Below are positions 1,074 through 20,000 of a DNA stretch of 20,000 nucleotides, piece after piece. A model generated the notes under the pieces. The model worked only from the letters and a program-made list of their open reading frames with translations, was not told where the DNA came from and did no database searches. The DNA comes from an uncultured virus (IMG/VR IMGVR_UViG_3300014205_009008) (lineage: Duplodnaviria; Heunggongvirae; Uroviricota; Caudoviricetes). The DNA is taken from the IMG/VR virus record IMGVR_UViG_3300014205_009008. One strand, written 5' to 3'. The position numbers and the translations under genes are program-made. Numbering within the stretch: the first letter of the stretch is position 1; each line of letters opens with the position of its first letter.

Positions 1074-2852
1074 ATGAATACCAATTGGAACCTGCAATTG
1101 CTCTATACTGGCATGGATGATCCGCAGATAACAATGGACATCGTAGACTTTGAAAATCAATACATCCAGTTTAACAAGAATTACTCCGGATCAAACCTCG
1201 CAGACAAGGCCACCCTGCTAAAGGCCCTCCAAGATTACACCCGCCTGCTATTTTGCCGTGGGGAGAGGGCAATGATTTATTTCAACTATATCACCGAGCT
1301 CAACAGCTCCGATACAGCAGCGGAAGCAGCCCTCTCGCTCACAACGGAAAGGATCACCAAAGCAAGCAACGAGGTCATCTTCTTTGATCTAAACCTCGGT
1401 AAAATCCCCGCAGAAACCCAGCAGGCTTTCCTGCAGGATCCTGACTTCGCACAATACCGCTATTATTTGGATGGGGTATTCAAGACAGCAAAATACAACC
1501 TGTCAGAAGCCGAGGAAAAGATTATATCACTCAAGGACGGGCCTTCTTACAGCATGTGGGTCAGCGGTCAGGAAAAGCTCCTGAGCCACCAGACAATTAA
1601 CTGGAAAGGCAATATCATCCCGCTCACTGAAGCACAGGAACTTGTTGAATCACTGCCCACAAAAGAACGCCGCAAGCTCCATAAACAGGTAATGGCAAAG
1701 CTCAAATCCGTCAGCGATTTTGCCGAGGCAGAGATCAACGCCGTCTACACCGATAAAAAGATTGATGACGAACTTCGAGGGTTTAAGACCTCCTATGATG
1801 CAACCCTCCTCGAGCACGAAACAACCGAAGACACAGTCTTTGCACTAGTCCAGTCAACGGCTTCAAATATCGCCATTAGTCACAGGTTTTTCAAGCTAAA
1901 GGCCAAACTCCTAGGACTGGAATACCTCACATATGCAGATAGAGCAGTCACCCTGAGCACAGAACAGAAAGAAGTCCCCTTCGAAGCTGGAGTCCAGATC
2001 GTCAGAAAGGCATTTGCTGCAATGGACAGCCAGTTCTCAGACATCTTTGATTCGTATCTAGCCAAGGGGCAAATCGACGTATATCCAAAAAGCGGGAAAA
2101 GTGGTGGGGCATATTGTTCCAGTAGCATCGGCAATCCAACATACGTCCTGTTGAACCACATGCCCGACATGCAGTCAACCGTCACCCTCGCACATGAAAT
2201 GGGGCATGCGATCCACAGCGAGCTCTCAGAATCACAGCCGCCGCTCTATCAAGCCTACACCACCGCCGTCGCTGAAGTAGCCAGCACATTTTTTGAACAG
2301 ATTGTATTCTATAACATGCTCGAAACACTCAGCGTCAAAGAGCAAATAGTGGCCCTCCACGATCGTATCAATCAGGATATCCAGACCACCTACAGGCAGA
2401 TTGCATTCTTCAACTTCGAACTCGAACTTCACCGGACAATGAAGAAGAAGGGGGCGGTATCCAAGGAAGAAATTGCAACCATCCTCAATAAGCATGTTTC
2501 CGAGTACCTAGGGGACAAATTCAAAATGGCGGAAGACGATGGTTTCTTCTTCGTTGGGCTCAGCCACATGCGAGACTTCTTCTATGTCTACTCATACGCC
2601 TATGGCAGTCTGATCAGCAGGGCGATCTACAAGCAATACGCCGAGGACAAGAATGCCCTTGTCAAAATCAAACAATTTCTATCTGCCGGTTGTTCAAAGA
2701 GCCCAGAAGATATTTTCAAAGATATCGGAATCGACATCTCCAAACCAGAATTTTGGGACAACGGCTTCCAAGCAATCGCGGAAGACATCGACAGGCTGGA
2801 AGCATTAATCGCAAACAGCAAGGCGCAGGTCAGCAAATTAGCCCAAAATTAA
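1074..2852 (+). CDS. pepF: M3B family oligoendopeptidase F
   Basis: 592 aa; GKSGGAYC, TLAHEMGHAIH (HExxH), AEVASTFFE and FYVYSYAYG motifs of M3B peptidases. Confidence 0.92.
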   Translation: MNTNWNLQLLYTGMDDPQITMDIVDFENQYIQFNKNYSGSNLADKATLLKALQDYTRLLFCRGERAMIYFNYITELNSSDTAAEAALSLTTERITKASNEVIFFDLNLGKIPAETQQAFLQDPDFAQYRYYLDGVFKTAKYNLSEAEEKIISLKDGPSYSMWVSGQEKLLSHQTINWKGNIIPLTEAQELVESLPTKERRKLHKQVMAKLKSVSDFAEAEINAVYTDKKIDDELRGFKTSYDATLLEHETTEDTVFALVQSTASNIAISHRFFKLKAKLLGLEYLTYADRAVTLSTEQKEVPFEAGVQIVRKAFAAMDSQFSDIFDSYLAKGQIDVYPKSGKSGGAYCSSSIGNPTYVLLNHMPDMQSTVTLAHEMGHAIHSELSESQPPLYQAYTTAVAEVASTFFEQIVFYNMLETLSVKEQIVALHDRINQDIQTTYRQIAFFNFELELHRTMKKKGAVSKEEIATILNKHVSEYLGDKFKMAEDDGFFFVGLSHMRDFFYVYSYAYGSLISRAIYKQYAEDKNALVKIKQFLSAGCSKSPEDIFKDIGIDISKPEFWDNGFQAIAEDIDRLEALIANSKAQVSKLAQN

Positions 2853-3361: not shown

Positions 3362-3835
3362 ATGATCGAAGCAGTTCTCTATTGTGACGCAAGTGTCAAA
3401 GCTGGTTTTTGTGGAATTGGTCTCTGCCTGTTGGACCTAAACGGAAACCTTATCAAAAAACAGAGCCGCCGCCTTTCAGATCGCGGCAAAAATAACACCG
3501 AGGGAGAGGCAGCAGCCATCATCGAAGGTATCAAACTGGCTCAAAAGCACGGCTTTTCCAGCATCAGGATCTACACTGACAGCAAATCGTTGGTTCAAGT
3601 TGCAAACAGGGGCAAAGGTGGGACTAAGATGACCCGCAAATTTGTGAAGGCACTCAGCACTCTCAAAAATCTTATTGCCATCAGCATCAAATGGGTCAAG
3701 GGTCACTCCGGCCAGAAATGGAATACACTCTGTGACAAACTCGCCCGCAACGCAAGCTGGTCAATCACAGACCTCATCACCATCGGGTTCAACAGGCTCT
3801 GCGGTAACTGGGATGTGCCCGGTGCACTCGTTTAA
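3362..3835 (+). CDS. rnhA: ribonuclease HI
   Basis: YCDAS, NNTEGE, IYTDSK and WVKGHSG..WNTLCDKLA supply the D-E-D-H-D catalytic set. Confidence 0.88.
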   Translation: MIEAVLYCDASVKAGFCGIGLCLLDLNGNLIKKQSRRLSDRGKNNTEGEAAAIIEGIKLAQKHGFSSIRIYTDSKSLVQVANRGKGGTKMTRKFVKALSTLKNLIAISIKWVKGHSGQKWNTLCDKLARNASWSITDLITIGFNRLCGNWDVPGALV

Positions 3836-4775: not shown

Positions 4776-5135
4776 ATGAGCATGCCAACCACATTACGCG
4801 AGCTGTCAGAGTTAATTGCCACACACAAGATAATCGTACACTCAGACGGACAAAGCGAACTTCTCGCACGAGCTACCTACTGGCAGAACGATAGTGGCTG
4901 GTACATTGTAGACAATGTTACAAATATACCACCTGAGTTGTCTTCCGACAGAATGGATCTTTTCTGGGCATATAGCGATAGACTATGCACCACTTCAGTT
5001 AATACCAAAGTTCTGCAGGATGCGAAATCACTCAGTCCTAGCGAGCTAATCAATTTTGTTCTAGAGCTAAATACCGTAACCAACAAAGGACTGCCCGATG
5101 GCACAATCCGTCTGGAATTTATACCGCTCGCATGA
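4776..5135 (+). CDS. hypothetical protein
   Basis: 119-aa ORF in the operon, with an ATGA overlap to the next gene. Confidence 0.7.
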   Translation: MSMPTTLRELSELIATHKIIVHSDGQSELLARATYWQNDSGWYIVDNVTNIPPELSSDRMDLFWAYSDRLCTTSVNTKVLQDAKSLSPSELINFVLELNTVTNKGLPDGTIRLEFIPLA

Positions 5136-5590
5136 TCCTTTTCATACCACCATTGCAAAGTAAAATCGCCTTAGCGTCACCGTGGACATTCACGCTAAAG
5201 GCCGACTACGAGAACCTCTCATTTATCGAAACAATGGTACAACAAGGGATCATAGACGAATCAGCACTTCTAGCCCTAAAGAATAGCATCTCTCCAAGCA
5301 GGTATACATCCCCAATGAGGAAATACAATTATCATGTATTCCTAACAGACCTAGTAACAGTAACATTACCTGCGGGCTCATATCTTAAGGTAGAAGCAAT
5401 GAGCATGAAGCCGCAAAAAACTGCATTTAGGAGCATATCACTACGCCTGCTGAAGACTCCAACCATGGACTGGAAAAATGCCCGCTTCAAAATAAACATC
5501 GAATACCTCAACACGATGGACATCAAGCCACCAACCATCGGCCCAGCACCAATACCGGCAACCACAACCATACACGCAAATCTATGCTAG
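5132..5590 (+). CDS. hypothetical protein (phage-type)
   Basis: 152 aa, coupled. The LFIPPL...WTF.L and VTLPAG..LKV pattern recalls uncharacterised large-phage proteins (from memory, not a search). Confidence 0.7.
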   Translation: MILFIPPLQSKIALASPWTFTLKADYENLSFIETMVQQGIIDESALLALKNSISPSRYTSPMRKYNYHVFLTDLVTVTLPAGSYLKVEAMSMKPQKTAFRSISLRLLKTPTMDWKNARFKINIEYLNTMDIKPPTIGPAPIPATTTIHANLC

Positions 5591-6826: not shown

Positions 6827-8212
6827 TCAAAAGAGATCCATCTCGGGTCGTTCATCAACCTCAACAAGAGAGTTTATGCATCTTATATGTTCTAGATGTG
6901 CCTCCCACCAGGTTTTACCGCCGCGCAACGGCTTGTCTAAGTCCCTTTTATAACTATCCGGAACAAGCAGGCTTGTAGGTATACGGTGCAAATATCCATT
7001 GTCTGCAGCCAGCTGCATAACATTACGCCCCCACGATACATCTACTTCGGCAATATTTTCAACAGTTAACAAACTACCTAAAAACTCATCATACCCGTCA
7101 TCCTTGGATTGTGCCCCTATAGCCCATGCCAAAACGGAATGCCCACCTTCAGCATTAGGCGGAGTATCAAGAAGGGATAGAACCTCAGGGGTTAATAACT
7201 CCCTTGGTATTTGGTTCAAACATCCAGCGGATGCCGCCTCATGATAAACAGTATACCACTTGTTACTAAGGCGCATATTCTCATCGGTCAACAATTCCTT
7301 TGGTGCACGATCTAAGCACGAATGCTGAGCCAGTGTGTGTAAAACTGTAGAACCATGTTCATCTACCCGCCTGTAATCATCCAGTTTTAACAGCCCCTCG
7401 GGTAGTCTGTTTAAATAGCCCGTAGCAGCCAGCTCATGTAACATATTTGGAGCCCCAGACAGTATTTTCTCAAAATTACGGGCAACATAGCCATTTGGTA
7501 ACTGGTCAAGTTCTCCAAACATCACCAAACTCTGAAAAGCTGTTGTTCCACGAATATTTCTCAATAGCAGATTAGGAAGGTTAATGCACTCTGGTGGTAA
7601 TTCCTTAATCCAGCCCAGACCAATCATTTCATGGAATACCGTAGCCCCAGCTGCGTCCGTCTTGCTAAAGTTTTCGTTAGTCAATATATGCAGTGGTAAG
7701 TTGTGAATATTACCATACATTGCTGCCTGCCTAAAGCAGGTAGGTTTTCCAGGAATTTCCTCATTAAGGTACCGCGATGTAATCAGATCACTAGGGGCAT
7801 GATCCCAGCCAAACTTAGCAGCCTTACTTAACACCTCGTAGCCCATATCAGTAAGTGTAGCATCTGGTTGCAAAAATAGCTCTGCAGGAAGTTGCCCAGC
7901 CTTCCCAAGTCTCACAGCATGATCCAAAACGGTCTGCAGCTCAGTATAGGGTTCGTTAAACAAAGCCCTTGTCATGGACTCCTTTGGCACCTGCGCTATT
8001 TTATCATTCGAAATCATCGCGGCCATAACCGTCACACCAAGAGCATCTCTCAAGCCCAAATTTTCCTCAGTCAGAGCCCAATCGGGAATTACAGCATCAG
8101 GGTAACGTGCATAATTATGTAAGGTTGTAGAGCCTGCAAAGTCACGCCGAACCCAATATTCAGGGTCCTCAGGCGTAGGTCCAAACAACAATTCCCTTAG
8201 TTTCTTAAGCAC
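6827..8212 (-). CDS. ankyrin-like repeat protein, long type (ends PEMDLF)
   Basis: Degenerate repeats such as TVLHTLAQHSCLDRAPKELLTDENM; paralog of 16460-17863. Confidence 0.8.
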   Translation of the reverse strand: MLKKLRELLFGPTPEDPEYWVRRDFAGSTTLHNYARYPDAVIPDWALTEENLGLRDALGVTVMAAMISNDKIAQVPKESMTRALFNEPYTELQTVLDHAVRLGKAGQLPAELFLQPDATLTDMGYEVLSKAAKFGWDHAPSDLITSRYLNEEIPGKPTCFRQAAMYGNIHNLPLHILTNENFSKTDAAGATVFHEMIGLGWIKELPPECINLPNLLLRNIRGTTAFQSLVMFGELDQLPNGYVARNFEKILSGAPNMLHELAATGYLNRLPEGLLKLDDYRRVDEHGSTVLHTLAQHSCLDRAPKELLTDENMRLSNKWYTVYHEAASAGCLNQIPRELLTPEVLSLLDTPPNAEGGHSVLAWAIGAQSKDDGYDEFLGSLLTVENIAEVDVSWGRNVMQLAADNGYLHRIPTSLLVPDSYKRDLDKPLRGGKTWWEAHLEHIRCINSLVEVDERPEMDLF

Positions 8213-8217
8213 ACTTA

Positions 8218-8247
8218 ATTATAGCACCAGCATAATGGAAAAGGCAA
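8218..8247 (-). promoter_or_regulatory. sigma70-like promoter, predicted leaderless
   Basis: TTGCCT-18-TATAAT (extended TGc), 5 nt before the GTG at 8212. Confidence 0.7.
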
Positions 8248-8274
8248 CCAAACACACCAAACAGAATAACCGAC

Positions 8275-8454
8275 ATGAAAATTTATCGGACAGCATTTCA
8301 ATGGAACGAGACATACGACACAACCGCCCACTGGATAGATATCATTAAACAACTTGGATACATCGTCTATGATATAGCCCCAAACGGAGCCGCCTACTGC
8401 GAGTATGCCATCAGCAAAAGAGTAGTCAAGAAATACAAGGGAAAGGAAGTGTAG
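8275..8454 (+). CDS. small hypothetical protein (59 aa, not in ORF track)
   Basis: MKIYRTAFQWNETYDTTAHWIDIIKQLGY...KGKEV; fills the intergenic gap on the main coding strand. Confidence 0.6.
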   Translation: MKIYRTAFQWNETYDTTAHWIDIIKQLGYIVYDIAPNGAAYCEYAISKRVVKKYKGKEV

Positions 8455-8471
8455 GCAAAAACATAAATAAC

Positions 8472-8738
8472 GTGCCAGATATTTACCTCAACCTTGACCA
8501 GCAAGCGCACAAGATCGTCATACGCGACCTATACGACCATATTCTGCACAAATCAGTAACATTGGAGGAAATAGTCATATCCAATGAGGACTGCACCGTA
8601 GTAATCAAGGGTCAACCAATCCTTCGCTGGGACCGCCACCTGCATTACCCAACTGCAGAAAATCACCCGATAGCCGCGTACCTATTCTTGCGAGCTATCG
8701 AAGATATCATACTCTCTAAGAAAGAAATCACCCATTAA
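8472..8738 (+). CDS. hypothetical protein
   Basis: 88-aa ORF with GTG start. Confidence 0.6.
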   Translation: MPDIYLNLDQQAHKIVIRDLYDHILHKSVTLEEIVISNEDCTVVIKGQPILRWDRHLHYPTAENHPIAAYLFLRAIEDIILSKKEITH

Positions 8739-8743
8739 CAATT

Positions 8744-9145
8744 ATGTACAAGAAACCAATATATTGCGTCGGACTAGCCCACAACTTTGGTCGCACAGGC
8801 GAGTTTTTAGGAGCATCAATGCGCTACGCAGGATTCGTACAGGTAAGGTGGGACGGGGAGAACAGGTCAGTACAGCTCCAAAGAAAAGATATCATCATGA
8901 CCTCCACGCTTGAGCGACCAACTGCCTATGTGGACCGCGCTAAATGCATTCCAAGTACGCAGCGCAAACACAACTACCCAAAATCAAGGAAACCTGCCAG
9001 CTCATTTAGCCTCTTCTCAAAATCCAAGCTCCGATGCCAGAGCAAGTGTTCAGCGTCAGGAACGCCATGCCAGAAGCGCAAAGGTCATAAAGGAACACAT
9101 TCTGGATGGATATACAAGTGGGGGAAAAAGCACTCACGCGCATAA
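8744..9145 (+). CDS. basic hypothetical protein with possible C-terminal Cys/His metal site
   Basis: CQSKCSASGTPCQKRKGHKGTH near the C-terminus. Confidence 0.6.
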   Translation: MYKKPIYCVGLAHNFGRTGEFLGASMRYAGFVQVRWDGENRSVQLQRKDIIMTSTLERPTAYVDRAKCIPSTQRKHNYPKSRKPASSFSLFSKSKLRCQSKCSASGTPCQKRKGHKGTHSGWIYKWGKKHSRA

Positions 9146-9149
9146 GCTG

Positions 9150-9179
9150 TTGACTAGCCGAACTAAATAGCGCTAGAAT
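9150..9179 (+). promoter_or_regulatory. sigma70-like promoter, predicted leaderless
   Basis: TTGACT-18-TAGAAT, 5 nt before the ATG at 9185. Confidence 0.75.
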
Positions 9180-9184
9180 CACTC

Positions 9185-9874
9185 ATGCCAGCTACCGAAA
9201 GTTTCCTATACAAAGCGGCAAGATTAGGGGAGCTAAACAAACTCCCCACTGAGGCACTGCTAGCCAGTGATTTTCTGGCTACGGATAAAGAAGGATTCTC
9301 CACCATCCACATAGCTGCGATATATGGACACTTGGACCAAGTTCCGCCCAGGTTCGTTACAGCAGAAAGCCTAGACCAGCAAGCAAACAACGGAAACACT
9401 GTTTTGCACTATGCTGCTAATTATGGCCAGCTTTACCTGATCCCAAAAGAACTACTAACTGTCGAACGGCTATCCGTCATAGGTCAGATCAAAAGAACAG
9501 TATTCCATTGGGCTGCCCGCAATGGGTTTCTTGACCAGATACCACCAGAATTACTTACCGCTGATAACCTCCTAGTCAAAGATCGTGGCGGCAAAACACC
9601 TGTATATCTTTCAGCTCGAAGCGGATATCTAGAACAAATACCAAGAGATATACTCACCACCGAAAATCTGCTAATTAAAGCTCACCACGGAATGAACGCA
9701 CTGGACGAAGCAGCACATGGGCGCAATGCCAGCCTGTCACCACTCGTGGGCATAAATTTGGAAGTTAACGATAAAGTACGAAGAATCCTGGGTGACGAAT
9801 GGCTTGAAAAGAATAACAGGGTGTGTCATACATTGAAGCCACAATCAGAAGACAGTCACATGGATATATTCTAA
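9185..9874 (+). CDS. ankyrin-like repeat protein (ends SHMDIF)
   Basis: 33-aa repeats such as TVLHYAANYGQLYLIPKELLT. Confidence 0.88.
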   Translation: MPATESFLYKAARLGELNKLPTEALLASDFLATDKEGFSTIHIAAIYGHLDQVPPRFVTAESLDQQANNGNTVLHYAANYGQLYLIPKELLTVERLSVIGQIKRTVFHWAARNGFLDQIPPELLTADNLLVKDRGGKTPVYLSARSGYLEQIPRDILTTENLLIKAHHGMNALDEAAHGRNASLSPLVGINLEVNDKVRRILGDEWLEKNNRVCHTLKPQSEDSHMDIF

Positions 9875-9877
9875 GCC

Positions 9878-9907
9878 TTGACCAATCCAGCTCAAATAGG
9901 CTAGTAT
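9878..9907 (+). promoter_or_regulatory. sigma70-like promoter, predicted leaderless
   Basis: TTGACC-18-TAGTAT, 5 nt before the ATG at 9913. Confidence 0.7.
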
Positions 9908-9912
9908 TACGA

Positions 9913-10623
9913 ATGGTAAAGGAATCGCCGGTATACGATAAGACATATATCCTTGAGGCAGCAAGGCTGGGAGAAATCGACCAAATCCCCAAACATATTC
10001 TAACCCAAGAATATCTCACAGTCAAAGGATTAAGCGATGTCACACCACTACATTGGGCTGCTGAAAGTGGATGTCTGGATCAAGTACCAAGCCAGTTTTT
10101 GACTGCACAAAATCTGTTAACTAAAGATTCCAGCGGTCGATCACCGCTACACTGGGCTGCAGAGTGCGGGCAACTCAATCAAATTCCTACCTCACTCCTA
10201 ACAGCAGAAAATTTACAAATCAAAGACAAAGATGGCAATTGCTCATTACACCAAGCAGCAGCAAATGGGTACTTGGGGCAATTACCAATAGAAATACTAA
10301 CTGACAGCAATTTGTTATTACATAATAGGGATGGTATTACTCCTTTGGACTGGGCTGCGTATTATGGGCATATACACCAAATTCCGCGTTCTGTCCTCAC
10401 ACCAAAGAACCTCCTTCATAAAGATAATTTTGGACTCTCGCCACTACAGAGGGCCGAACAAAAAGGTCACCTTGATGCCCTGTTAGGAATTAAATTTGAG
10501 GATACCAAAGAAATACGGGACATAGTTGGGGACTGGTATGATAAAAATATACAATTTATAAAAGACCAGAATCTAACCGCGTATGTGAAAGAGGATGAGG
10601 CTCAAGAAATAGACATATTCTAA
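9913..10623 (+). CDS. ankyrin-like repeat protein (ends QEIDIF)
   Basis: TPLHWAAESGCLDQVP-type repeats. Start moved from 9823 to ATG 9913, which removes the overlap and fits the promoter. Confidence 0.88.
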   Translation: MVKESPVYDKTYILEAARLGEIDQIPKHILTQEYLTVKGLSDVTPLHWAAESGCLDQVPSQFLTAQNLLTKDSSGRSPLHWAAECGQLNQIPTSLLTAENLQIKDKDGNCSLHQAAANGYLGQLPIEILTDSNLLLHNRDGITPLDWAAYYGHIHQIPRSVLTPKNLLHKDNFGLSPLQRAEQKGHLDALLGIKFEDTKEIRDIVGDWYDKNIQFIKDQNLTAYVKEDEAQEIDIF

Positions 10624-11384
10624 TGATACCCAACCGTCAAAATTCGTTACGCAGGATTCGCCTATCTTCCCACATATTTTCAACAGCGTCTATCCAAGAA
10701 AGCGAAGCAAGTATCGCCTTACATGCCGCCGCCTCCTCAGGCACCTTAGACAAAATTCCAAAAGTCTGGCTGACAGCATCAAAACTCCGAATTCAAAATA
10801 AAACCGGTGAAACCGTCCTTGCAGTTGCCGCAAAGCACGGACACCTGGATCAAATACCAGCAAAGTTCCTAACCTCCTCAAATCTTCTCGTACCAAACCA
10901 ACACGGCCACACCGCATTTCATCAGGCCGCAGATAGTGGGCACTTAAATCAGTTCCCCATCAAATTACTGACTTCGGCCAATCTCCTAAAACGTAACTAT
11001 TGGGGAGGAACAACACTTCATATGGCAGTAGCCAAAGGGCACTTAGATCAAATACCAAAGAAGTTACTCACAATTGTAAACCTACTTAAGCGCACTAGAA
11101 CCGGAGATACCATTATTCACAGGGCAGCCTCAACCAACCACCTACATCATACCCCCAAGCAATATATAACCGAAGCAAATCTCCTCATGGAAAACAGCGA
11201 ACGGCAAACTCCCCTGCACCTACTTATGCGATTCGGAGCACCAGATCAGTTACATGACGTAGAACTATCGCCAGCCGTCGTTCCAATAGTTGGAGATGAG
11301 TGGTACTCAAGGTACCTGGAACGAAAGAAGAGCTTGGACACACTAGAGCCAGCAGTGAATACAAATGAACTAGATATGTTCTAG
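10623..11384 (+). CDS. ankyrin-like repeat protein (ends NELDMF)
   Basis: TVLAVAAKHGHLDQIP-type repeats; coupled to the upstream paralog by TAATG. Confidence 0.85.
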   Translation: MIPNRQNSLRRIRLSSHIFSTASIQESEASIALHAAASSGTLDKIPKVWLTASKLRIQNKTGETVLAVAAKHGHLDQIPAKFLTSSNLLVPNQHGHTAFHQAADSGHLNQFPIKLLTSANLLKRNYWGGTTLHMAVAKGHLDQIPKKLLTIVNLLKRTRTGDTIIHRAASTNHLHHTPKQYITEANLLMENSERQTPLHLLMRFGAPDQLHDVELSPAVVPIVGDEWYSRYLERKKSLDTLEPAVNTNELDMF

Positions 11385-11400
11385 AAAACGAGATAGTCAA

Positions 11401-11419
11401 CTAAGCTACGCTTAGCCCA
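11401..11419 (+). promoter_or_regulatory. hairpin motif copy 3 (CTAAGC-TAC-GCTTAG), putative phage promoter; predicted +1 at A11419
   Basis: 6-bp stem, intergenic, before the ATG at 11437. Confidence 0.72.
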
Positions 11420-11436
11420 CACAAAACATCAATCGT

Positions 11437-11727
11437 ATGAAACTTTCTGAGGTCTCCAACCGTTCCATCGCACTTTTACTCGCAGCCTTCGACCAAGATG
11501 CCGAAAACGGCGGATTTACTAGCTTCCCACAAGCACCAGAACAGGTGAGTGAGGACTTTGTTGCCGCATATGAGCATGCCTCCCGAGAAGCCCTTATCCA
11601 AGATCTTTCAGTACACCTCGATCAAGAGATCAACGAGGACAGCGAAGTCGAAAGCTTCATTCCCGAAATTGGGGAAGATCCTGTAAATTTCCTCATTCTG
11701 GCGAACGGGCCGGAAGTAGAGATCTAA
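11437..11727 (+). CDS. small acidic hypothetical protein
   Basis: 96 aa with 21 D/E versus 3 K/R. Confidence 0.75.
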   Translation: MKLSEVSNRSIALLLAAFDQDAENGGFTSFPQAPEQVSEDFVAAYEHASREALIQDLSVHLDQEINEDSEVESFIPEIGEDPVNFLILANGPEVEI

Positions 11728-11736
11728 AGAAATCAA

Positions 11737-12012
11737 ATGAAAACCCTGTATAAGGTTACAGCTCCAGCTCACATATACGAACCTCAGTACGTTCGTGGAC
11801 CGATCTACAAAGTCTTTGATACCCACACGGACGCGCTAAAGACAATCAAACGTATCAAAAAGGTACTCCAGTTACAAGAGAAAGACGGCACCACAGATGC
11901 CGAAGATAAATTTCGCGAAATGGTTTATGACCTGATGAACTGTAACGGAGACTGCGTCTTTACAGGCTCACCCAAGCTAACAGTTATCACCGAAGAAACA
12001 ATCAACGTATGA
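11737..12012 (+). CDS. hypothetical protein
   Basis: 91-aa ORF with an ATGA overlap to the next gene. Confidence 0.7.
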   Translation: MKTLYKVTAPAHIYEPQYVRGPIYKVFDTHTDALKTIKRIKKVLQLQEKDGTTDAEDKFREMVYDLMNCNGDCVFTGSPKLTVITEETINV

Positions 12013-12296
12013 AAGTGCACAACGAGCCTATTCCCGACGGCAAGCTAGGCCAATTTGACGAGATCCTCAAACTATGCGGAGGTAGATACCTGCAAAATCC
12101 AATCGAAGCACCTGACCAGTACGGAAGGTATCGCGTCTCGTACCAATATGACAACATGGCAGGCGCAACGCAGCATGAGGAGAAATGGAAACGCATAACA
12201 TCGGACATTAGAGAGACTACCAAACCAAGAGGGTTATCGGCTATCCTTTTAAAGACCAAACATTGGCTTTTGTACTTATTTGGGCCAATAGATTAA
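12009..12296 (+). CDS. hypothetical protein
   Basis: 95-aa coupled ORF; its stop overlaps the stop of the convergent gene. Confidence 0.7.
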   Translation: MKVHNEPIPDGKLGQFDEILKLCGGRYLQNPIEAPDQYGRYRVSYQYDNMAGATQHEEKWKRITSDIRETTKPRGLSAILLKTKHWLLYLFGPID

Positions 12297-13201
12297 CGAG
12301 CAAACTTGCGCCGACACGCGTAAAGAACTGGACAGCCAAAGAGTAGAAGACACCAAACGCTTGGTTCAGGAACTGCAGCTATATCCTGTATCCAACCCAT
12401 TGAACTAGACACTCTTGCTGTGTAAAACATTCCAGATCCAGACATAGGTACTATACCTGTAAAGTAATCACCGTAGTATCCATCTTCATTATATAAGGCA
12501 GCATTAAATGCATTGCTAAAATTAGCTTGAAGACTGTATGGGCCATCTACACAAGAATTCACTCCTGCAAGCTTCCAAACCCCAGCATCCAGGATAAATA
12601 GCCCAAATCCAGAATCACCACCAGATAGCATGCCCTCATTTACTCCAGCGTTGTGATTGAACTCAGCACCAAGTAAATGCCCCCACGTTGAGCCGCCACT
12701 ATCCACTATACTGGTAATCTCATTCGTCCCCCACCTCAAGGTATTCCACGACCCACTACCCCATTCCCATCCACGGGTAGACCCGTTTACAACCTCATTG
12801 CCTCTAGGAGCACCTTTGCCAAAAATCATGGCTAGCTTACCAACCTCATCAGACCCAGTATACAATGGGGCGTAAGACGAAAAAGTCCCATCTACCTTGC
12901 ATATGGTCAGATCTTCATTTGGATTATTATAAACTTCCGTTATTGTATACCTCACATTCTGCGCATCCCAAAAGGACCCGCCAGCAGACCACCCAAGATG
13001 TTTGGCACTAAGAAAGTATTGCGAGGCTATAGGTGTTCCCGAACTTGAACCCATATACTGCCAACCACTATCAGCATAGATGCCGGTGGGAGCCGTAGTA
13101 TTAAACGAAGACTCGCCAGTTGAATCAAACAGGATACCATATGAAGTCGAACAAAGAAACAACAGGAAAGTAAAGGGTAGTTTACGCATAATATTAGCCA
13201 T
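12293..13201 (-). CDS. secreted trypsin-like serine protease with PEP-CTERM sorting signal
   Basis: Signal peptide (MRKLPFTFLLFLC...). Catalytic triad candidates are LSAKH, EDLTI and GGDSGFG. C-terminus is VPEPS + hydrophobic helix + RRK. The start may be 13189. Confidence 0.85.
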   Translation of the reverse strand: MANIMRKLPFTFLLFLCSTSYGILFDSTGESSFNTTAPTGIYADSGWQYMGSSSGTPIASQYFLSAKHLGWSAGGSFWDAQNVRYTITEVYNNPNEDLTICKVDGTFSSYAPLYTGSDEVGKLAMIFGKGAPRGNEVVNGSTRGWEWGSGSWNTLRWGTNEITSIVDSGGSTWGHLLGAEFNHNAGVNEGMLSGGDSGFGLFILDAGVWKLAGVNSCVDGPYSLQANFSNAFNAALYNEDGYYGDYFTGIVPMSGSGMFYTARVSSSMGWIQDIAAVPEPSVWCLLLFGCPVLYACRRKFAR

Positions 13202-13359
13202 TCAAATTTTATTGGTATACAGTCATCAACAGTCCACAATATTTTGCCAGTGTAAACCCACTAGAACTTATGCTGTCATCGAACCATCTTAAAAATCTAA
13301 CCCATCAAACCTTAAAAGTCAAGGGGTGTTTTAAAACTTTTCTACACACCTCAAATAGA

Positions 13360-13377
13360 CAAGCTACGCTTGAATTA
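13360..13377 (+). promoter_or_regulatory. hairpin motif copy 4 (CAAGC-TAC-GCTTG), putative phage promoter; predicted +1 at A13377
   Basis: 5-bp stem, intergenic, before the GTG at 13399. Confidence 0.7.
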
Positions 13378-13398
13378 TCAAACTCATAAACACAACCT

Positions 13399-13542
13399 GT
13401 GAACAAGATTTCCATCAAGCGACTGACCAGAACCACCGATAGCAAGCGCGGAGCTTTCACTTTCCACTCAAAAATCAAGGGTCGCAACAAAGTTCTCGCT
13501 CGGCGTCGCAGCAGAAGGGTCATCAACAACCTCGAAGATTAA
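13399..13542 (+). CDS. small basic protein (47 aa, not in ORF track), weakly bL34-like
   Basis: MNKISIKRLTRTTDSKRGAFTFHSKIKGRNKVLARRRSRRVINNLED; lies between hairpin copy 4 and the next ATG, which is 3 nt after its stop. Confidence 0.6.
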   Translation: MNKISIKRLTRTTDSKRGAFTFHSKIKGRNKVLARRRSRRVINNLED

Positions 13543-13545
13543 GGG

Positions 13546-13845
13546 ATGAAAACACTTACACGCATTGAGGTTAATCCAAGCGGGGACGGATACCTTTCAA
13601 TCTTCCTCAACGGCAATCTGTTAATCCATGGCGACGACTACCATGACAAGATACGCGATCAGTACAATGGCATCAAGGCATACCTGGAACACGTGGGGGA
13701 AAAGTTCAAAGAAGAGAAAATCGCCTTGGACGTAAAGACTGGAGACCAAGAATGGTCGGATTACGATTACATGCCAGATACCGAGGAAACCCTCGACGAA
13801 TACCTCACCAAGATGAAGGAAAACTTTAAACCAACAAAACCATGA
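13546..13845 (+). CDS. hypothetical protein
   Basis: 99-aa ORF with an ATGA overlap to the next gene. Confidence 0.75.
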   Translation: MKTLTRIEVNPSGDGYLSIFLNGNLLIHGDDYHDKIRDQYNGIKAYLEHVGEKFKEEKIALDVKTGDQEWSDYDYMPDTEETLDEYLTKMKENFKPTKP

Positions 13846-14102
13846 CCGAATTCCAAAAAATCCGCAGGTTCACAGGCACAAAAAAGCACGCCGAAACACA
13901 CGTATTTCTCCAGTGCAGAGATAACCAAGGAACAGTAGAAGTTGGTGAATTGGCTACCTACACCAGCCCATCTAGTTGGGTCGACGTTCTGGATATCACA
14001 AAACTCGGCCCCTTTATCGAGGAAATCCCTTGGGAATCCGAGCAGGACGAAACCAGCTTCAAACAAGCACAGGAAGCTGAATACCGAAAAGCCCTAAGGT
14101 AA
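13842..14102 (+). CDS. hypothetical protein
   Basis: 86-aa coupled ORF. Confidence 0.7.
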   Translation: MTEFQKIRRFTGTKKHAETHVFLQCRDNQGTVEVGELATYTSPSSWVDVLDITKLGPFIEEIPWESEQDETSFKQAQEAEYRKALR

Positions 14103-14193
14103 TGGATTCGAAACGCCCAGAAATCGGAAAAATCCTGTAACATTCCATTGGTTGTAGATGCGATATCTCTTACTGCAGGGCATTCACATTACT

Positions 14194-14210
14194 AGGCTAC
14201 GCCCCAAACA
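14194..14210 (+). promoter_or_regulatory. hairpin motif copy 5 (AGGC-TAC-GCC); predicted +1 at A14210
   Basis: 3-bp stem, intergenic. Confidence 0.55.
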
Positions 14211-14234
14211 TAAAAAGGTATAGCAAGTAATAGT

Positions 14235-14264
14235 TTGCAAAAAGTACACAAGATCTGTTAATAT
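14235..14264 (+). promoter_or_regulatory. sigma70-like promoter, predicted leaderless
   Basis: TTGCAA-18-TAATAT (extended TGt), 5 nt before the ATG at 14270. Confidence 0.65.
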
Positions 14265-14269
14265 ATTGT

Positions 14270-14461
14270 ATGCATAAAGTAAAATACATCGATTTTGCTG
14301 AAATTCAGAGAAAAAAGGAAGTGTCGCGGGCACTCGATAATATGCTTGTTGCACAAGGCCAGCTTAAGGAAGTAGAAATAAAAAACAACCTGCTAGGACG
14401 ATTGCAGATAGATACTGGTCGCCTCAAAATGCCATTTAAACGCGCCCGGACATTATGGTAA
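14270..14461 (+). CDS. small basic hypothetical protein, possible partner of the downstream NTase
   Basis: 63 aa with its own promoter; overlaps the next gene by 7 nt. Confidence 0.55.
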   Translation: MHKVKYIDFAEIQRKKEVSRALDNMLVAQGQLKEVEIKNNLLGRLQIDTGRLKMPFKRARTLW

Positions 14462-15321
14462 CGCATACGCCGGATACCATCAAAAAAATAGCTGCACTGG
14501 CAGCGAAAGCAGGATTGGTTATCGTAGGTGGACAAGCTGTCAACACATGGAGCCTGAAGTACTATACGGAGAATACGGATCCTTGGGACAGTCTTAAACC
14601 TTTTACCAGCGACGATTTAGATTGTGTAGGAGACGCCAGTAAACTACACGCATTTGTGGAGCTCTTAAACAAGGAGTATGATGTAACAGTCACGCTACCA
14701 GCAAATGCCGAAGAGGAAAAAATAAACACAGCAGTTATAGAAATTTCAAAGGGAGATTTCTATTTAGGCGTGAATTGTCTTAAAAGTATACTTGGTGTAG
14801 AAACCGAAGATATTACCAGAGGTGCTGTGGCCACAGACGGTAACATGGCCTTGGTGTTACACCCGCTGCTTTGCCTGCAATCAAAATCTCATAACCTCGC
14901 AACTTTAGACCAATCTAATAGGCAGGATGAAAAGCATCTTCGTTTGTCCATTGCAAATCTGCACTCTTTTCTTAAAGAGCAGGAGTTGTCTGTTGAAGAT
15001 GCCGAGCTATACGTGGAGAAAATCACTGAAAAGGCAAGTTTGAATACCTACTTGCAACGCAGCTATAATGTCAACTGTGTGGATGCTTTACCATTGGAAG
15101 AATGGAGTAATAGCAGCAACGAAAGAATGCGCGCTCTTGCAGAAATTGGCAAAGAAGCACACAAAAAGGTTCAGCTTGCGGCAGAGAAGGAAGTAGCAGC
15201 AGAAGAGTGGTTAAGGCAACTTAATCCAAATCCATTTAAGCGTAACAAAGGGATAGGGTTTTTGTCAAAATTCAAGGACCTACCATCCAAAGTCGAAGAG
15301 TCACAGCAGCCAGAAATATAA
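14455..15321 (+). CDS. DNA-pol-beta-superfamily nucleotidyltransferase-like protein
   Basis: VIVGGQAV..W followed by FTSDDLD fits the hGG...[ST]xDhD signature of AbiEii-like NTases. Confidence 0.65.
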   Translation: MVTHTPDTIKKIAALAAKAGLVIVGGQAVNTWSLKYYTENTDPWDSLKPFTSDDLDCVGDASKLHAFVELLNKEYDVTVTLPANAEEEKINTAVIEISKGDFYLGVNCLKSILGVETEDITRGAVATDGNMALVLHPLLCLQSKSHNLATLDQSNRQDEKHLRLSIANLHSFLKEQELSVEDAELYVEKITEKASLNTYLQRSYNVNCVDALPLEEWSNSSNERMRALAEIGKEAHKKVQLAAEKEVAAEEWLRQLNPNPFKRNKGIGFLSKFKDLPSKVEESQQPEI

Positions 15322-15451
15322 TTTGGGCCGATCGGGTTGAAAAAACCTGAAGGTGGGCCTTGGAATAATAAGAATAAAAACTTAAACTCCTTGCACTCTG
15401 GCAATTTAAATAACATTGTCCGATAATTTGGTACTAGGAGCAGGTAACTCT

Positions 15452-16369
15452 CTAAAATATATCCATCCCCGTATGTTCACCATCCTGCACAACAAGATGT
15501 TGCTTGGCTTTCAACACCTTTTGGTTCCTTTCCCACCAATCATTGCCAACTATGTTTTTACTAGATACGAGAAGCTCCAACCCTAACAACTGATCCAAAT
15601 GCCCCTGATGAGTCGCGCAATGTAAAGGTGTCATACCATCGTTATCCCCAACCATTAGATTAATACCCGTAAGAACCTCCATCGGAATCTGATCCAAATG
15701 ACCATATTCAGACGCATAGTGCACAGGTGTTAGACCAATACTATTTTTTGACATCAGACTTGCTTCTGTAAGCAATGCCTTGGGCACCAGATCCAACTGA
15801 CCATGCTCAGCTGCATAGTGTAAGGGGGTATAGCCAGAGGCAGAATTTGCCACCAGAGTAGCTCCAGTAAGTAGATCCCTAGGAATCTGATCCAAATGAC
15901 TGGTCGCAGCCGCATAGTGTAAGGGCGTGCTGGCATCGGAATTCTTCAACATCAAATTTGCCACTGTAAGGACCTCCCTAGGCACTTGATTCAAATGTCC
16001 ATACTCTGCAGCGAAGTGCAAAGGTGTTTGACCAAGGTCATCTTTGACTAACAGGTTAGCTTCTGTAAGAAATTCCCTAGGAACCTGATCCAAATGTCCG
16101 GTCGAGGCCGCAACATGCAACGGAGTAAACTCATCACTATTCTTTACCAACAGATTAATTGCAGTAAATAATTTGTTAGGAATATAATCTAATTGGCCCT
16201 TTTCTGCTGCCCAGTGGAGTAGGATGCTACCAGAAGCATCCCTTACCAATAGAGTTGCTGGAGTCAGCAACTCTATTGGCACAAGCTCCAATTGACCCCT
16301 AGCCGCATAGTGCAACATATACTGGACCGACATTTGCCGCCCTTTCTTACTAAATTTGGCCTTTACCAT
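15452..16369 (-). CDS. ankyrin-like repeat protein (ends TGMDIF)
   Basis: About 8 regular 33-aa repeats, TPLHxAAxxGHLDQhPxxhLTxANLhxKxxxG. Confidence 0.92.
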   Translation of the reverse strand: MVKAKFSKKGRQMSVQYMLHYAARGQLELVPIELLTPATLLVRDASGSILLHWAAEKGQLDYIPNKLFTAINLLVKNSDEFTPLHVAASTGHLDQVPREFLTEANLLVKDDLGQTPLHFAAEYGHLNQVPREVLTVANLMLKNSDASTPLHYAAATSHLDQIPRDLLTGATLVANSASGYTPLHYAAEHGQLDLVPKALLTEASLMSKNSIGLTPVHYASEYGHLDQIPMEVLTGINLMVGDNDGMTPLHCATHQGHLDQLLGLELLVSSKNIVGNDWWERNQKVLKAKQHLVVQDGEHTGMDIF

Positions 16370-16374
16370 AACAA

Positions 16375-16403
16375 ACTATAGCATAGGACTCCTCGAAAAC
16401 CAA
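16375..16403 (-). promoter_or_regulatory. sigma70-like promoter, predicted leaderless
   Basis: TTGGTT-17-TATAGT (extended TGc), 5 nt before the ATG at 16369. Confidence 0.65.
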
Positions 16404-16459
16404 ACTCGAATCAGAAAAAACCCTCGATGATGCCACAATGGAGCAAGCAACTATAACGC

Positions 16460-17863
16460 CTAAAATATATCTATATCAGGCGTTTCCACCTGAGAAGTTA
16501 GAGAGTTAATAATACGCATGTGCTCAACATGCGCGTCCCACCAAGAAGAACCATCTGGCAAAGGGACATCAAGAAACTGTTTATAACTATCAGGTACTGG
16601 AAGTGTAGTTGGAATTCTGGCTACCTTACCTCTAGTAACAGCCACTTCCATTATATTCTTACCCCATCCAATATCCTGAACAGCTAAATTCTCTACAGTT
16701 AGAAGGCTACCTATAAACTCATCATATCCAAACTCCTTTGAGTTCGCGCCAACAGCATAGGCCAAGACTGAATGTCTCCGACTCCATCCTTGGTCAGGCC
16801 TATCTAAAAGTCCAAGTATTTCTGCTGTTAATAAATCTCTAGGTATCTGGTTTAAACACCCACCCATAGCAGCAGTATGGTAAACCGAAGAACCAGCACT
16901 AACCAAACGAAGATTCTCATCAGTTAGTACTTCTGCTGGTAAGTTGCGCAATTTTCCATGCTCTGCCGCTACATGAATTACAGTAGCCCCCGCACCATCC
17001 CGCCGAAGATAATCAGGAGCCGTAACTAAACCAGAAGGCAACCGATCTATTCTATCTAATGCAATAAGGTTGTGCAAAATATTCTTATCGCCAGCCAATA
17101 ATATGTCGAAATTTTTCTCTATAAACCCTGCTGGGAGATACTTCAATTCATCAAAGAAGCATAACTGCTGAAAAACAGTCTTATGATGATGATTCTCTAT
17201 AAGCAAATTCTCCACAGTGAAACACTCCACAGGCAAGTCCTTAACAAACCCCAACCCAATCAAGTCATGGAATATTGGAGTGCCAGAAGAGTCGCACGTA
17301 GCCAAATTTTCGGTAGTTAAAAGGTGTAGAGGTAACTTTGTAATGCCGCCATACTTGGCAGCTTGTCGGAAACAAGACTCCATGCCCCTATAATTCTCAT
17401 GCAGATGCTGCGACGTAATAAGCCCAGCCGGTGCAGTTGCAAGAGTCCCATGTTTTGCTACACGGGACAGAACCTCATAGCCATAATCATTAAGACCTTC
17501 ACCATGCTCAAACAACCTTACAGGCAGCTGTGAGACATTACATGAATCCACAGCATGCTTTAGCACAGTAATCTCACAATTATTATGTCTAGGCAGATCA
17601 AAAAGCGCCGCAGTCAAAGACTCAGCAGGCACATCGCCAACTCTACCTGCATTAATTATATCATAAATAACCGGCACGCCCTGATTATTTTTGATCATCA
17701 AATTCTCTTCAGTAAGAACGCCAGCAGGGATTTTTGTACCCACAACCCTTGGATCACTACCACACAAATGCAATAAAGTATTACCATATTTATCCTGCCC
17801 AACCCAAAATTCTAGGTCATCCTTGCTAGGGCCAAAGAACCAATTACGCAATTGTTTGAGCAT
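16460..17863 (-). CDS. ankyrin-like repeat protein, long type (ends PDIDIF)
   Basis: Colinear paralog of 6827-8212. Start set to ATG 17863 because MLKQLRN matches MLKKLRE and fits the promoter spacing. Confidence 0.82.
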   Translation of the reverse strand: MLKQLRNWFFGPSKDDLEFWVGQDKYGNTLLHLCGSDPRVVGTKIPAGVLTEENLMIKNNQGVPVIYDIINAGRVGDVPAESLTAALFDLPRHNNCEITVLKHAVDSCNVSQLPVRLFEHGEGLNDYGYEVLSRVAKHGTLATAPAGLITSQHLHENYRGMESCFRQAAKYGGITKLPLHLLTTENLATCDSSGTPIFHDLIGLGFVKDLPVECFTVENLLIENHHHKTVFQQLCFFDELKYLPAGFIEKNFDILLAGDKNILHNLIALDRIDRLPSGLVTAPDYLRRDGAGATVIHVAAEHGKLRNLPAEVLTDENLRLVSAGSSVYHTAAMGGCLNQIPRDLLTAEILGLLDRPDQGWSRRHSVLAYAVGANSKEFGYDEFIGSLLTVENLAVQDIGWGKNIMEVAVTRGKVARIPTTLPVPDSYKQFLDVPLPDGSSWWDAHVEHMRIINSLTSQVETPDIDIF

Positions 17864-17868
17864 TCTCA

Positions 17869-17898
17869 AGACTACCACATATGCCTGTTACCAAGCAA
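17869..17898 (-). promoter_or_regulatory. sigma70-like promoter, predicted leaderless
   Basis: TTGCTT-18-TAGTCT (extended TGg), 5 nt before the ATG at 17863. Confidence 0.6.
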
Positions 17899-17913
17899 CC
17901 ATAACCATGCATG

Positions 17914-17943
17914 TTGCCTTTACCAACCATAGTCCTTTATAAT
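17914..17943 (+). promoter_or_regulatory. sigma70-like promoter, predicted leaderless
   Basis: TTGCCT-18-TATAAT, 5 nt before the ATG at 17949; divergent from the previous promoter. Confidence 0.75.
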
Positions 17944-17948
17944 ATGGT

Positions 17949-18692
17949 ATGCTTAACCTACATGAAGCAGCTAGAACCGGACAGTTAAACCTTGTACCGT
18001 CTAACATTCTGGCCGAAAACCTGCAGTTAAGAAATGTCGAAGACTTTAGTGTCCTAGACATCGCAGCATCTAATGGACATCTTGAACAAATTCCAGCAGC
18101 TCTACTAACTACCGCAAATATGACATGTTTTGTGGGTAGCACATTGAATGACCCTGATGTCATGATTTCCCCTATTCAGAGAGGTATAGCAAACTTCCTT
18201 TCACACTTCAAGCGCAACCGGGAAAATACTCGAGTACTACCTAAACAGTTTAGGAAATACGAACACCCAACAAAACAAACGCCAATGCACTATGCAGCAA
18301 GGCACGGCCATTTGGACCAGTTACCAAAAGAGGTACTAACTGTTGAGAACATGCTGGTTGATGATATTGACAACTGGACTCCCTTGCACAAGGCAGCTGC
18401 TTTTGGGCATTTGGATCAAGTTCCCGTGGAAATCCTTACAAACCCACAAGCATTGTTTAAAAAGCGACGCCTTGAGATAGATGATTTATTTACCGGTGCA
18501 ACAGTGTTGGATACTGCAGTCGAATACGGGAACCTCCAACAGCTGTTTGGCGTAGATTTGCCCATAGAGTGCAGAGAAATAGTTGGGGATGAGTGGTTCA
18601 ACAATAATCAAGAGCATATTGCAGCAGTAAGAAAGGCAAAAGGTACAATTACAGAGGAAGTTCCTAAAGAACCGGAAATAGAGTTGTTCTAA
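17949..18692 (+). CDS. ankyrin-like repeat protein with loop insertion (ends PEIELF)
   Basis: TPMHYAARHGHLDQLP and TPLHKAAAFGHLDQVP repeats; IVGDEW cap. Confidence 0.87.
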   Translation: MLNLHEAARTGQLNLVPSNILAENLQLRNVEDFSVLDIAASNGHLEQIPAALLTTANMTCFVGSTLNDPDVMISPIQRGIANFLSHFKRNRENTRVLPKQFRKYEHPTKQTPMHYAARHGHLDQLPKEVLTVENMLVDDIDNWTPLHKAAAFGHLDQVPVEILTNPQALFKKRRLEIDDLFTGATVLDTAVEYGNLQQLFGVDLPIECREIVGDEWFNNNQEHIAAVRKAKGTITEEVPKEPEIELF

Positions 18693-19644: not shown

Positions 19645-19908
19645 ATGAAACATTTCCACGAGAATCACATCATACTTCTCGATGGTCAACCGACATACCT
19701 CCTAAGTCACTGGGATTCGGATCTAGGGCTTGCCATTTGTGTCAGTGGGCCCAAAGTCCTCCTACTACATGAAAGTAATGCCACGGAGCTAGATGGAGCA
19801 AAGCTTGACCTGAAAAACGTGAACTACCACGCCGCAAGTAGCGGGGCATCCAGTTTCAATGGCGCTAACTTATATATTTGGCCACTACGATCTCGGTTGA
19901 AATCATAG
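19645..19908 (+). CDS. hypothetical protein
   Basis: 87-aa ORF following the operon. Confidence 0.55.
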   Translation: MKHFHENHIILLDGQPTYLLSHWDSDLGLAICVSGPKVLLLHESNATELDGAKLDLKNVNYHAASSGASSFNGANLYIWPLRSRLKS

Positions 19909-20000
19909 CCCTCGTATACAGTGGTTAATGCCTCCACTGGCAGACCAATACGTTCCGCATTGGTAATAGACTTACTATTATTTAACTCATACTCACCATA
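19824..20000 (-). CDS. possible 3' end of a convergent gene entering from outside the window
   Basis: Minus frame open from 20000 to the TAG at 19824 (YGEYELNNSK...PLLAAW); overlaps the previous ORF by 85 nt. Confidence 0.3.
   Translation of the reverse strand, partial: YGEYELNNSKSITNAERIGLPVEALTTVYEGYDFNRDRSGQIYKLAPLKLDAPLLAAW

Follow-up and report, generated by a model that had tools for sequence, protein, structure and literature searches.

We found that seven genes in a 20,000-nucleotide stretch of DNA from an uncultured virus record (IMG/VR IMGVR_UViG_3300014205_009008; the whole stretch is referred to here as the window) are an undescribed ankyrin-repeat subfamily of Verrucomicrobia-related uncultured DNA. 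All seven proteins end in [MIL]-[DE]-[LIM]-F-COOH, and this tail closes a conserved C-terminal module that spans approximately 55 residues. We lean toward a reading in which the tail is an exposed docking or targeting peptide that would bind one common receptor on behalf of all paralogs. The seven genes are given below with the length of each protein in amino acids (aa), its C-terminus, the position of its module, and the evidence for it, including its open reading frame (ORF) where this was used.

6827..8212, minus strand: ankyrin-like paralog 1, 461 aa, C-terminus PEMDLF, module 6830-7009 (ORF, alignment; Ank_2 23.8 bits).
9185..9874, plus strand: ankyrin paralog 2, 229 aa, C-terminus SHMDIF, module 9692-9871 (ORF, Pfam, alignment, AlphaFold2).
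9823..10623, plus strand: ankyrin paralog 3, 266 aa from a GTG start, C-terminus QEIDIF, module 10441-10620 (ORF, Pfam, alignment).
10623..11384, plus strand: ankyrin paralog 4, 253 aa, C-terminus NELDMF, module 11202-11381 (ORF, Pfam, alignment).
15452..16369, minus strand: ankyrin paralog 5, 305 aa, C-terminus TGMDIF, module 15455-15634 (Ank_2 E 2.6e-42, alignment, AlphaFold2).
16460..17878, minus strand: long ankyrin-like paralog 6, 472 aa, C-terminus PDIDIF, module 16463-16642 (ORF, alignment).
17949..18692, plus strand: ankyrin paralog 7, 247 aa, C-terminus PEIELF, module 18510-18689 (ORF, Pfam, alignment).

The Pfam gathering score for ankyrin models is exceeded by five of the seven paralogs. 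Paralog 1 falls narrowly under the cut-off (23.8 vs 27.3 bits), and a Pfam scan of paralog 6 gave no match; both of these long proteins align with the other five over the repeats and the module, and they are 51% identical to each other. Identity to the first sequence of the alignment ranges from 27 to 51%, and overall identity is approximately 30%. The ankyrin surfaces are highly divergent while the tail is constant, and the internal repeats are of an unusual type (G-H-L-D-Q-[IV]-P-x-x-L-L-T-x-E-N-L). Three of the paralogs lie head to tail on the plus strand at 9185-11384 with nearly no spacers: the stop codon of paralog 3 shares one base with the ATG of paralog 4 (TAATG), and the GTG start of paralog 3 at 9823 overlaps paralog 2 by 52 bases. 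Paralog 3 probably starts instead at an internal ATG near 9913, just past the stop of paralog 2.

An initial annotation of this DNA had described seven ankyrin-like paralogs with a shared [MIL]-[DE]-[LIM]-F end, and a six-frame scan confirmed them. In the census of C-termini proposed there, the tail followed immediately by a stop codon occurs seven times in the window, always on the seven ankyrin ORFs and never on a non-ankyrin ORF, against a composition-based expectation of 0.14 over 1,785 stops. Since the seven ORFs are paralogs, chance is the wrong null for a shared tail. The tail codons vary synonymously across the paralogs (TTT/TTC, GAT/GAC/GAG, ATA/CTC/TTG/ATG), stop codons of all three types (TAA, TAG, and TGA) are in use behind the tails, and the DNA 3' of the stops is unrelated between paralogs. 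The tail is therefore conserved as protein sequence, and a DNA element common to the genes does not account for it.

We aligned the last 60 residues of the seven window proteins (alignment A2) and searched the resulting profile against 1.84 billion cluster representatives, with clusters defined at 50% identity. At E<=1e-3 the profile matched 184 representatives, of which 41 reached E<=1e-10, and the match almost always reached the last residue of the protein. Paralogs 1 and 7 are themselves cluster representatives in this search (P0005, E 3.7e-17, and P0001, E 9.4e-27, respectively). Three low-ranking matches (P0053, P0143, and P0147) are apparently spurious. Within the best 150 of the 184 matches, 75 carry the strict motif [MIL][DE][LIM]F and 119 carry it when Val is allowed ([MILV][DE][LIMV]F). 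The possibility, raised in the initial annotation, that homologs elsewhere lack the tail therefore fails, as those 119 of the best 150 matches keep it and a terminal Phe is found in 155 of 179 family C-termini pooled below. Ank_2 was found in 123 of the 143 family members scanned, and no second recurrent domain was found among the 143. The module has no curated family: no Pfam or NCBIfam model covers it, and a literature search judged on titles and abstract openings found no description of it. The suggestion in the initial annotation that the system is undescribed is thus supported.

The listed profile matches, the window, and 14 related loci together gave 179 non-redundant C-termini with a Trp motif, and the terminal Phe is nearly invariant among them. 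The frequency of Phe as the last residue, together with a profile match that nearly always ends there, is the pattern expected when selection acts on a free C-terminal peptide. The information content at positions -1 to -5 is 3.9, 1.5, 1.6, 1.5, and 1.1 bits, while the preceding 7-8 residues (-6 to -12), which are mostly acidic or polar, hold merely 0.2-0.8 bits. The [MILV][DE][LIMV]F end is present in 138 of the 179, and the consensus of the wider family is [ED]-[IVLM]-[DE]-[LI]-F-COOH. Residues M, I, or L at -4, as initially annotated, hold for the seven window tails but not for the wider family, in which Val is frequent at this position.

The module begins with a modified terminal ankyrin repeat that forms a capping unit, followed by an amphipathic helix, a variable acidic spacer, and [DE]-Φ-[DE]-Φ-F-COOH, where Φ is hydrophobic. 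The Trp motif noted in the initial annotation is present in all seven window paralogs, as GDEW, GDW, or GNDWW in the five short proteins and as GKTWW or GSSWW in the two long ones. Across the 179 C-termini, the consensus anchored on this motif is L-D-Q-L-L-G-[LIVF]-[ED]-[LF]-[PS]-E-x-[VAC]-[RK]-x-I-V-G-[ED]-[ED]-W-[WYF]-x-[KR]-N-x-x-[VIL]-[LI]-x-x-K-x-x-L. The architecture of variable ankyrin repeats with a constant C-terminal end was therefore correctly recognized from the start; what is constant, however, is not a bare four-residue tag but the module of approximately 55 residues with its near-fixed spacing.

We next consider the predicted structure of two paralogs, modeled with AlphaFold2 on alignments of 143 and 136 rows. 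The mean predicted local distance difference test score (pLDDT) was 94.9 for paralog 5, with a helix at residues 276-297, and 95.4 for paralog 2, with a helix at residues 196-217. In both models the long cap helix starts at the Trp motif or slightly before it. The solenoid and cap helix are predicted with pLDDT >95, while the final 8-12 residues are modeled as coil with pLDDT 66-70. In paralog 5, pLDDT is 77 over residues 291-300 and 70 over residues 301-305; in paralog 2, the last 12 residues are coil, with a mean pLDDT of 66 over the last 9. Packing of the tail as a structural cap, which the initial annotation had raised as a concern, is thus not confidently predicted. Foldseek returned ankyrin proteins only, with ankyrin-1, DARPins, and espin ankyrin repeats as top matches (E ~1e-10).

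The tail is common on the DNA that carries the family. Related contigs are 36-376 kb in length with 42-46% G+C and hold arrays of up to 25 copies. In crude gene calls for the window and the related loci, 54 of 248 genes, about a fifth, end with the tail, and 25 of the 54 lie on a single 156-kb contig; approximately 0.05 chance tails are expected among the non-family genes. The Trp motif is present in 50 of the 54, two of them variants outside the strict pattern. The remaining four keep the helix, the spacing, and the tail, and ankyrin-like repeats are recognizable in two of these four and not in the other two. The tail is family-bound, and none was seen on an unrelated protein in these gene calls. 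The presence of the module on at least 184 clusters and about a fifth of the genes examined suggests heavy investment in a single interaction.

The family appears to be confined to assembled metagenomes in the collections searched. Ten profile matches traced by exact sequence lie on contigs no longer than 236 kb, all of them in assemblies from JGI, ENA, or Logan. A word-based search with alignment A5 and longer proteins gave 14 matches, likewise all from JGI, Logan, or ENA; a word-based protein search with one tail region gave no match. For the proteins of the window itself, the longest contig found measures 115,752 bases. The back-translated pattern VG[DE][DE]WW[DE][KR]N had 14 matches in JGI metagenome contigs (376, 233, 156, 48, and 36 kb and three short ones) and none in GTDB species genomes. 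IMG/VR viral contigs returned no match to two window proteins, this same pattern, alignment A5, or the neighboring exonuclease gene, and a megablast search with the complete window gave no match among 50,697 phage records either. Among sampled Verrucomicrobiota genomes, the profile matched none of the 5 closest, none of 401 from the order, and none of 401 from the phylum, in a search run without a positive control. Look-alikes in the ESM Atlas were generic ankyrin or unnamed clusters only, the best (0.92) being to an unnamed cluster of 28 aa.

A variable binder, a rigid cap helix, an acidic spacer of near-fixed length, and a conserved free C-terminus are what would be expected of a docking or targeting peptide. 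This reading, which we hold to be somewhat more probable than not and in which binding in trans is itself inferred, is carried by the anatomy of the module, by a tail that the whole family keeps at its extreme C-terminus and that is modeled with low order, and by the expansion of the genes in arrays. The eukaryote-like proteins encoded on the carriers and the precedents from type 1 secretion described below also speak for it. We propose that the ankyrin repeats, diverged and varying in number, provide a variable binding surface, and that a dedicated C-terminal capping unit leads through the amphipathic helix into a short, acidic, poorly conserved spacer. The tail, probably with the preceding helix, would connect every paralog to one receptor, a pocket of which would read the terminal carboxylate and the Phe, so that many target-specific ankyrin domains would feed one machine. 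The leading version of this proposal, by analogy with the C-terminal end of type 1 substrates, is that the tail may serve as a C-terminal export or translocation signal of an effector-like arsenal, which we put forward tentatively. Next comes docking onto a hub inside the cell, for instance a protease or an ATPase, for which ankyrin-PRANC/F-box and ASB/SOCS-box proteins offer the analogy; this seems unlikely to us. In a more specific and similarly doubtful proposal, the family would be a prokaryotic substrate-receptor system in which dozens of ankyrin binders deliver targets via the tail to one AAA+ protease or secretion/packaging ATPase, the machine being a product of the same giant Verrucomicrobia-associated replicon or of the host. 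If true, the system would be the equivalent in bacteria or phages of the eukaryotic and viral ankyrin-F-box/SOCS-box logic with a new C-terminal docking signal.

Several observations weigh against an exposed docking tail. A search of the element for export genes, a clamp, or a protease, as suggested by the initial annotation, found no ATP-binding cassette (ABC)/membrane fusion protein (MFP)/TolC set, type IV secretion system (T4SS), type VI secretion system core, clamp, or dedicated protease in the DNA examined (approximately 200 kb from the window and related loci, which covers each contig only in part). RTX repeats are missing from the proteins, which have up to 8 cysteines, and this is atypical of classical type 1 secretion substrates. 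In the 248 gene calls, no tail was seen without the preceding helix, and the spacing is tight, with 26 residues after the Trp motif in 83 of the 179 C-termini and 27 in 29 (112 together). The tail pLDDT lies above the <50 usual for fully disordered tails. A host-associated lifestyle of the carriers is read from gene content only.

Some of these same features would be accounted for if the tail bound its own protein. In this rather improbable alternative, the tail folds back within its own protein, either onto the capping unit or into the concave groove of the ankyrin repeats, and serves as a structural plug or an autoinhibitory pseudo-ligand, in the manner of the autoinhibition segments of ankyrin-R/B. 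The near-fixed distance from the Trp motif to the C-terminus fits it, as do the helix that always precedes the tail, even in the four tail proteins without VGxxWW, and a tail pLDDT that is intermediate and not very low. Foldseek matches also include autoinhibition-bound ankyrin-B repeats (5y4d, 5y4f, 4rlv), although this reflects the ankyrin fold alone. Yet AlphaFold2, given 136-143 homologs, places the tail without confidence next to repeats and a cap helix that are modeled with very high confidence, and the tail and module share little mutual information (the best of 148 comparisons, without correction for relatedness, reached z 3.7). The divergence of the ankyrin surfaces behind a constant tail speaks against binding in the groove, though not against binding to the cap. 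We regard it as very unlikely that the tail has no separate function and is residual similarity of recent paralogs or part of the ankyrin C-cap fold. The paralogs do lie in arrays, and the module clearly opens with a modified terminal ankyrin repeat. Against this, 184 clusters defined at 50% identity keep the tail, with the preceding 7-8 residues varying almost freely; the window paralogs are so dissimilar overall; and the last residue of the protein, at which the profile match nearly always ends, is Phe in most family C-termini.

Mimicry of a replisome hub, in which the tail would be a beta-sliding-clamp motif or a mimic of the tip of single-stranded DNA-binding protein (SSB) and would recruit the paralogs to DnaN or SSB-binding enzymes, is the least probable of the alternatives weighed here. 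Both parallels were drawn in the initial annotation, and both are poorly supported. Positions -4 to -1 (Φ-[DE]-Φ-F) do resemble the last four residues of the clamp motif (QL[SD]LF), and an acidic stretch followed by Phe resembles the SSB tip. The Gln that defines the clamp motif is missing, however: position -5 is Glu in 68, Asp in 53 (121 of 179 together), and Gly in 15, and Gln is not among the six commonest residues there in the 179 C-termini and is absent from this position in all seven window tails. With dozens of paralogs on each replicon, competition for the clamp would also be hard to square with replication. The register is wrong for SSB, which in four related Chthoniobacterales genomes ends DDIPF (Pro at -2, hydrophobic at -3), whereas the family has an acid at -3, Leu or Ile at -2, and no Pro. 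When the 60-residue module (A2) was co-folded with the DnaN of a related Terrimicrobiaceae genome (L096:1501-2595), used as a stand-in, the score was 0.01, with the mark at 0.32, and the result weighs neither way.

We next asked what kind of DNA carries the family; related loci are given below by their L numbers. The carriers may be chromosomes of a low-GC Chthoniobacterales lineage, perhaps eukaryote-associated and absent from the genome collection searched, or giant mobile elements or huge phages of such bacteria. A Rho gene (L003:2936-4279, plus strand) encodes a protein 84% identical to that of a Terrimicrobiaceae metagenome-assembled genome, and a DnaK (L011:15964-17889, minus strand) is 83-86% identical to those of five Chthoniobacterales genomes. 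Both genes have approximately 47% G+C, and G+C at third codon positions in Rho is 44% vs 61-91% in the seven relatives measured. Such a composition suggests that these genes evolved for a long time under a different base bias. The carriers have 42-46% G+C, whereas the surroundings of Rho in 80 Chthoniobacterales genomes have 50-68% (median, 59%). Other carrier genes encode ClpP, a hybrid histidine kinase, an ABC permease, and OmpA-like and PEP-CTERM proteins. Phage-like genes are present as well (homing endonucleases, a T5orf172 helicase, PhoH, a T4-like RNA ligase, and pieces of a phage-type exonuclease and polymerase), and so are eukaryote-like proteins: Sel1, HEAT, and PARP-WGR proteins, a Suv3-like helicase, a Ser/Thr kinase, and a single-chain enzyme like phenylalanyl-tRNA synthetase (PheRS). 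The PheRS-like enzyme (L006:18454-19485, minus strand) has a class II core and FDX-ACB, the mitochondrial arrangement, and is 27-29% identical to bacterial PheS; the PARP-WGR protein and Suv3-like helicase are encoded at L014:2579-4159 and L014:5865-7967, respectively, both on the plus strand. The Sel1-repeat proteins encoded near two arrays were weighed as candidate carboxylate-clamp receptors and set aside, as one has a signal peptide, the other does not, and none is encoded in the window.

The window itself suggested a phage at first, with its many small ORFs, several matches to PHROG families only, RNase H, YqeY, and an M3 peptidase, and the idea of virion loading raised in the initial annotation presupposes phage carriers. 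The M3 (PepF-like) oligopeptidase at 1074-2852 (plus strand) matches phrog_27765 (E 4e-62) better than it does cellular PepF. Because it is just 23-30% identical to the PepF of 80 Chthoniobacterales genomes, it is not an ordinary cellular copy. Two RNase H-like genes (RVT_3/RNase_H) lie within 4 kb of each other on the plus strand, at 1-636 and 3362-3835, the former with a fused acidic coiled C-terminal extension. In the middle of the ankyrin cluster, at 12293-13201 (minus strand), is a gene for a protein of 302 aa with a signal-like N-terminus, a C-terminal PEP-CTERM signal (VPEP...RRK), and weak matches to NCBIfam PEP-CTERM families; another PEP-CTERM protein is encoded beside an ankyrin array at L011:18028-18654. 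An RHS-repeat protein of 1,426 aa (L006:13102-17379, minus strand) is flanked by two ankyrin arrays, and a gene for an Apyc1-like (anti-Pycsar) hydrolase of the metallo-beta-lactamase fold (L010:3558-4691, minus strand) adjoins a family member.

A 180-base repeat at 19819-20000 of the window recurs at the ends of two family-carrying contigs (L010:1-149, 97%; L011:128-309, 92%), which links the window to the population of those contigs. The stretch is probably either a dispersed repeat or the end of an insertion sequence at which assemblies break. The non-ankyrin neighbors common to the window and the related loci are limited to two weak pairs (636-1040 with L003:5348-5704, and 5132-5590 with L010:5923-6384), and no candidate partner was found among the conserved non-ankyrin neighbors in this comparison.

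Repeat families that combine a variable surface with one constant handle, such as ANK-PRANC, Ank-F-box, and ASB-SOCS proteins, are how viruses and intracellular bacteria redirect host machinery. ASB proteins are metazoan ankyrin-SOCS-box adaptors. In Orientia tsutsugamushi, the arsenals of Ank proteins are reported to be type 1 secretion substrates with a constant C-terminal domain, the F-box (PMC4315096, PMC4148323). The family described here resembles poxvirus ANK-PRANC/F-box, Orientia Ank-F-box, and ASB-SOCS proteins in having many diverged ankyrin paralogs per genome, each with variable repeats and a short constant C-terminal unit. In those systems the variable repeats set the target, and the constant unit couples all paralogs to a single machine. 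The unit differs: no F-box, PRANC, or SOCS-box Pfam match was found in the seven window proteins (E<=0.01) or in 143 members (E<=0.001), and the constant part here is a Trp-containing capping helix with a free acidic-hydrophobic-Phe C-terminus. The carriers differ as well, being Verrucomicrobia-related and neither Rickettsiales nor viruses of eukaryotes. NCBIfam models of Dot/Icm type IVB ankyrin effectors (T4SS_AnkX, AnkY, AnkG, etc.) reached at best 65.9 bits vs equivalog cut-offs of 500-1400, with matches confined to the ankyrin repeats.

For the extreme C-terminus of type 1 substrates, Ghigo and Wandersman reportedly formulated in 1994 a rule of acidic and then hydrophobic residues. The substrates of the protease/lipase group carry a motif at this position, for example 'EGVLIS' in TliA (PMC3430570). 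Type 1 substrates carry an uncleaved signal in their last 50-60 residues, with a helix-prone segment ahead of an acid and hydrophobics that must lie at the very C-terminus. The tail of our family, with the helix before it, may loosely fit this pattern, as a resemblance only. Its motif is far more strictly conserved, with a nearly invariant terminal Phe. RTX (HemolysinCabind) matches were found neither in the seven window proteins nor in the 143 members, and no genes for a type 1 secretion system (ABC, MFP, or outer membrane factor) were found among the neighbors scanned, which cover only parts of the contigs.

Short C-terminal ligands are another point of comparison; they include the clamp motif QL[SD]LF, the SSB tip DDDIPF, the class III PDZ ligand [DE]-x-Φ-COOH, and the CAP-Gly ligand EE[YF]-COOH. 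Like these, the tail is a free C-terminal peptide that follows a flexible acidic linker; its last residue is Phe, and an acid stands two or three positions earlier. The likeness to PDZ and CAP-Gly ligands is a pattern match only, with no such receptor in the DNA examined, and the tail differs from the clamp motif in having no Gln and from the SSB tip in having no Pro. Knowing the receptor would establish a new C-terminal signal for targeting or docking and would allow the whole cargo or adaptor repertoire to be predicted from sequence alone, in the setting of a branch of Verrucomicrobiota about which little is known, or of its giant mobile elements. Our data indicate that the module follows the known design of variable repeats plus a constant handle, with a handle that is undescribed.

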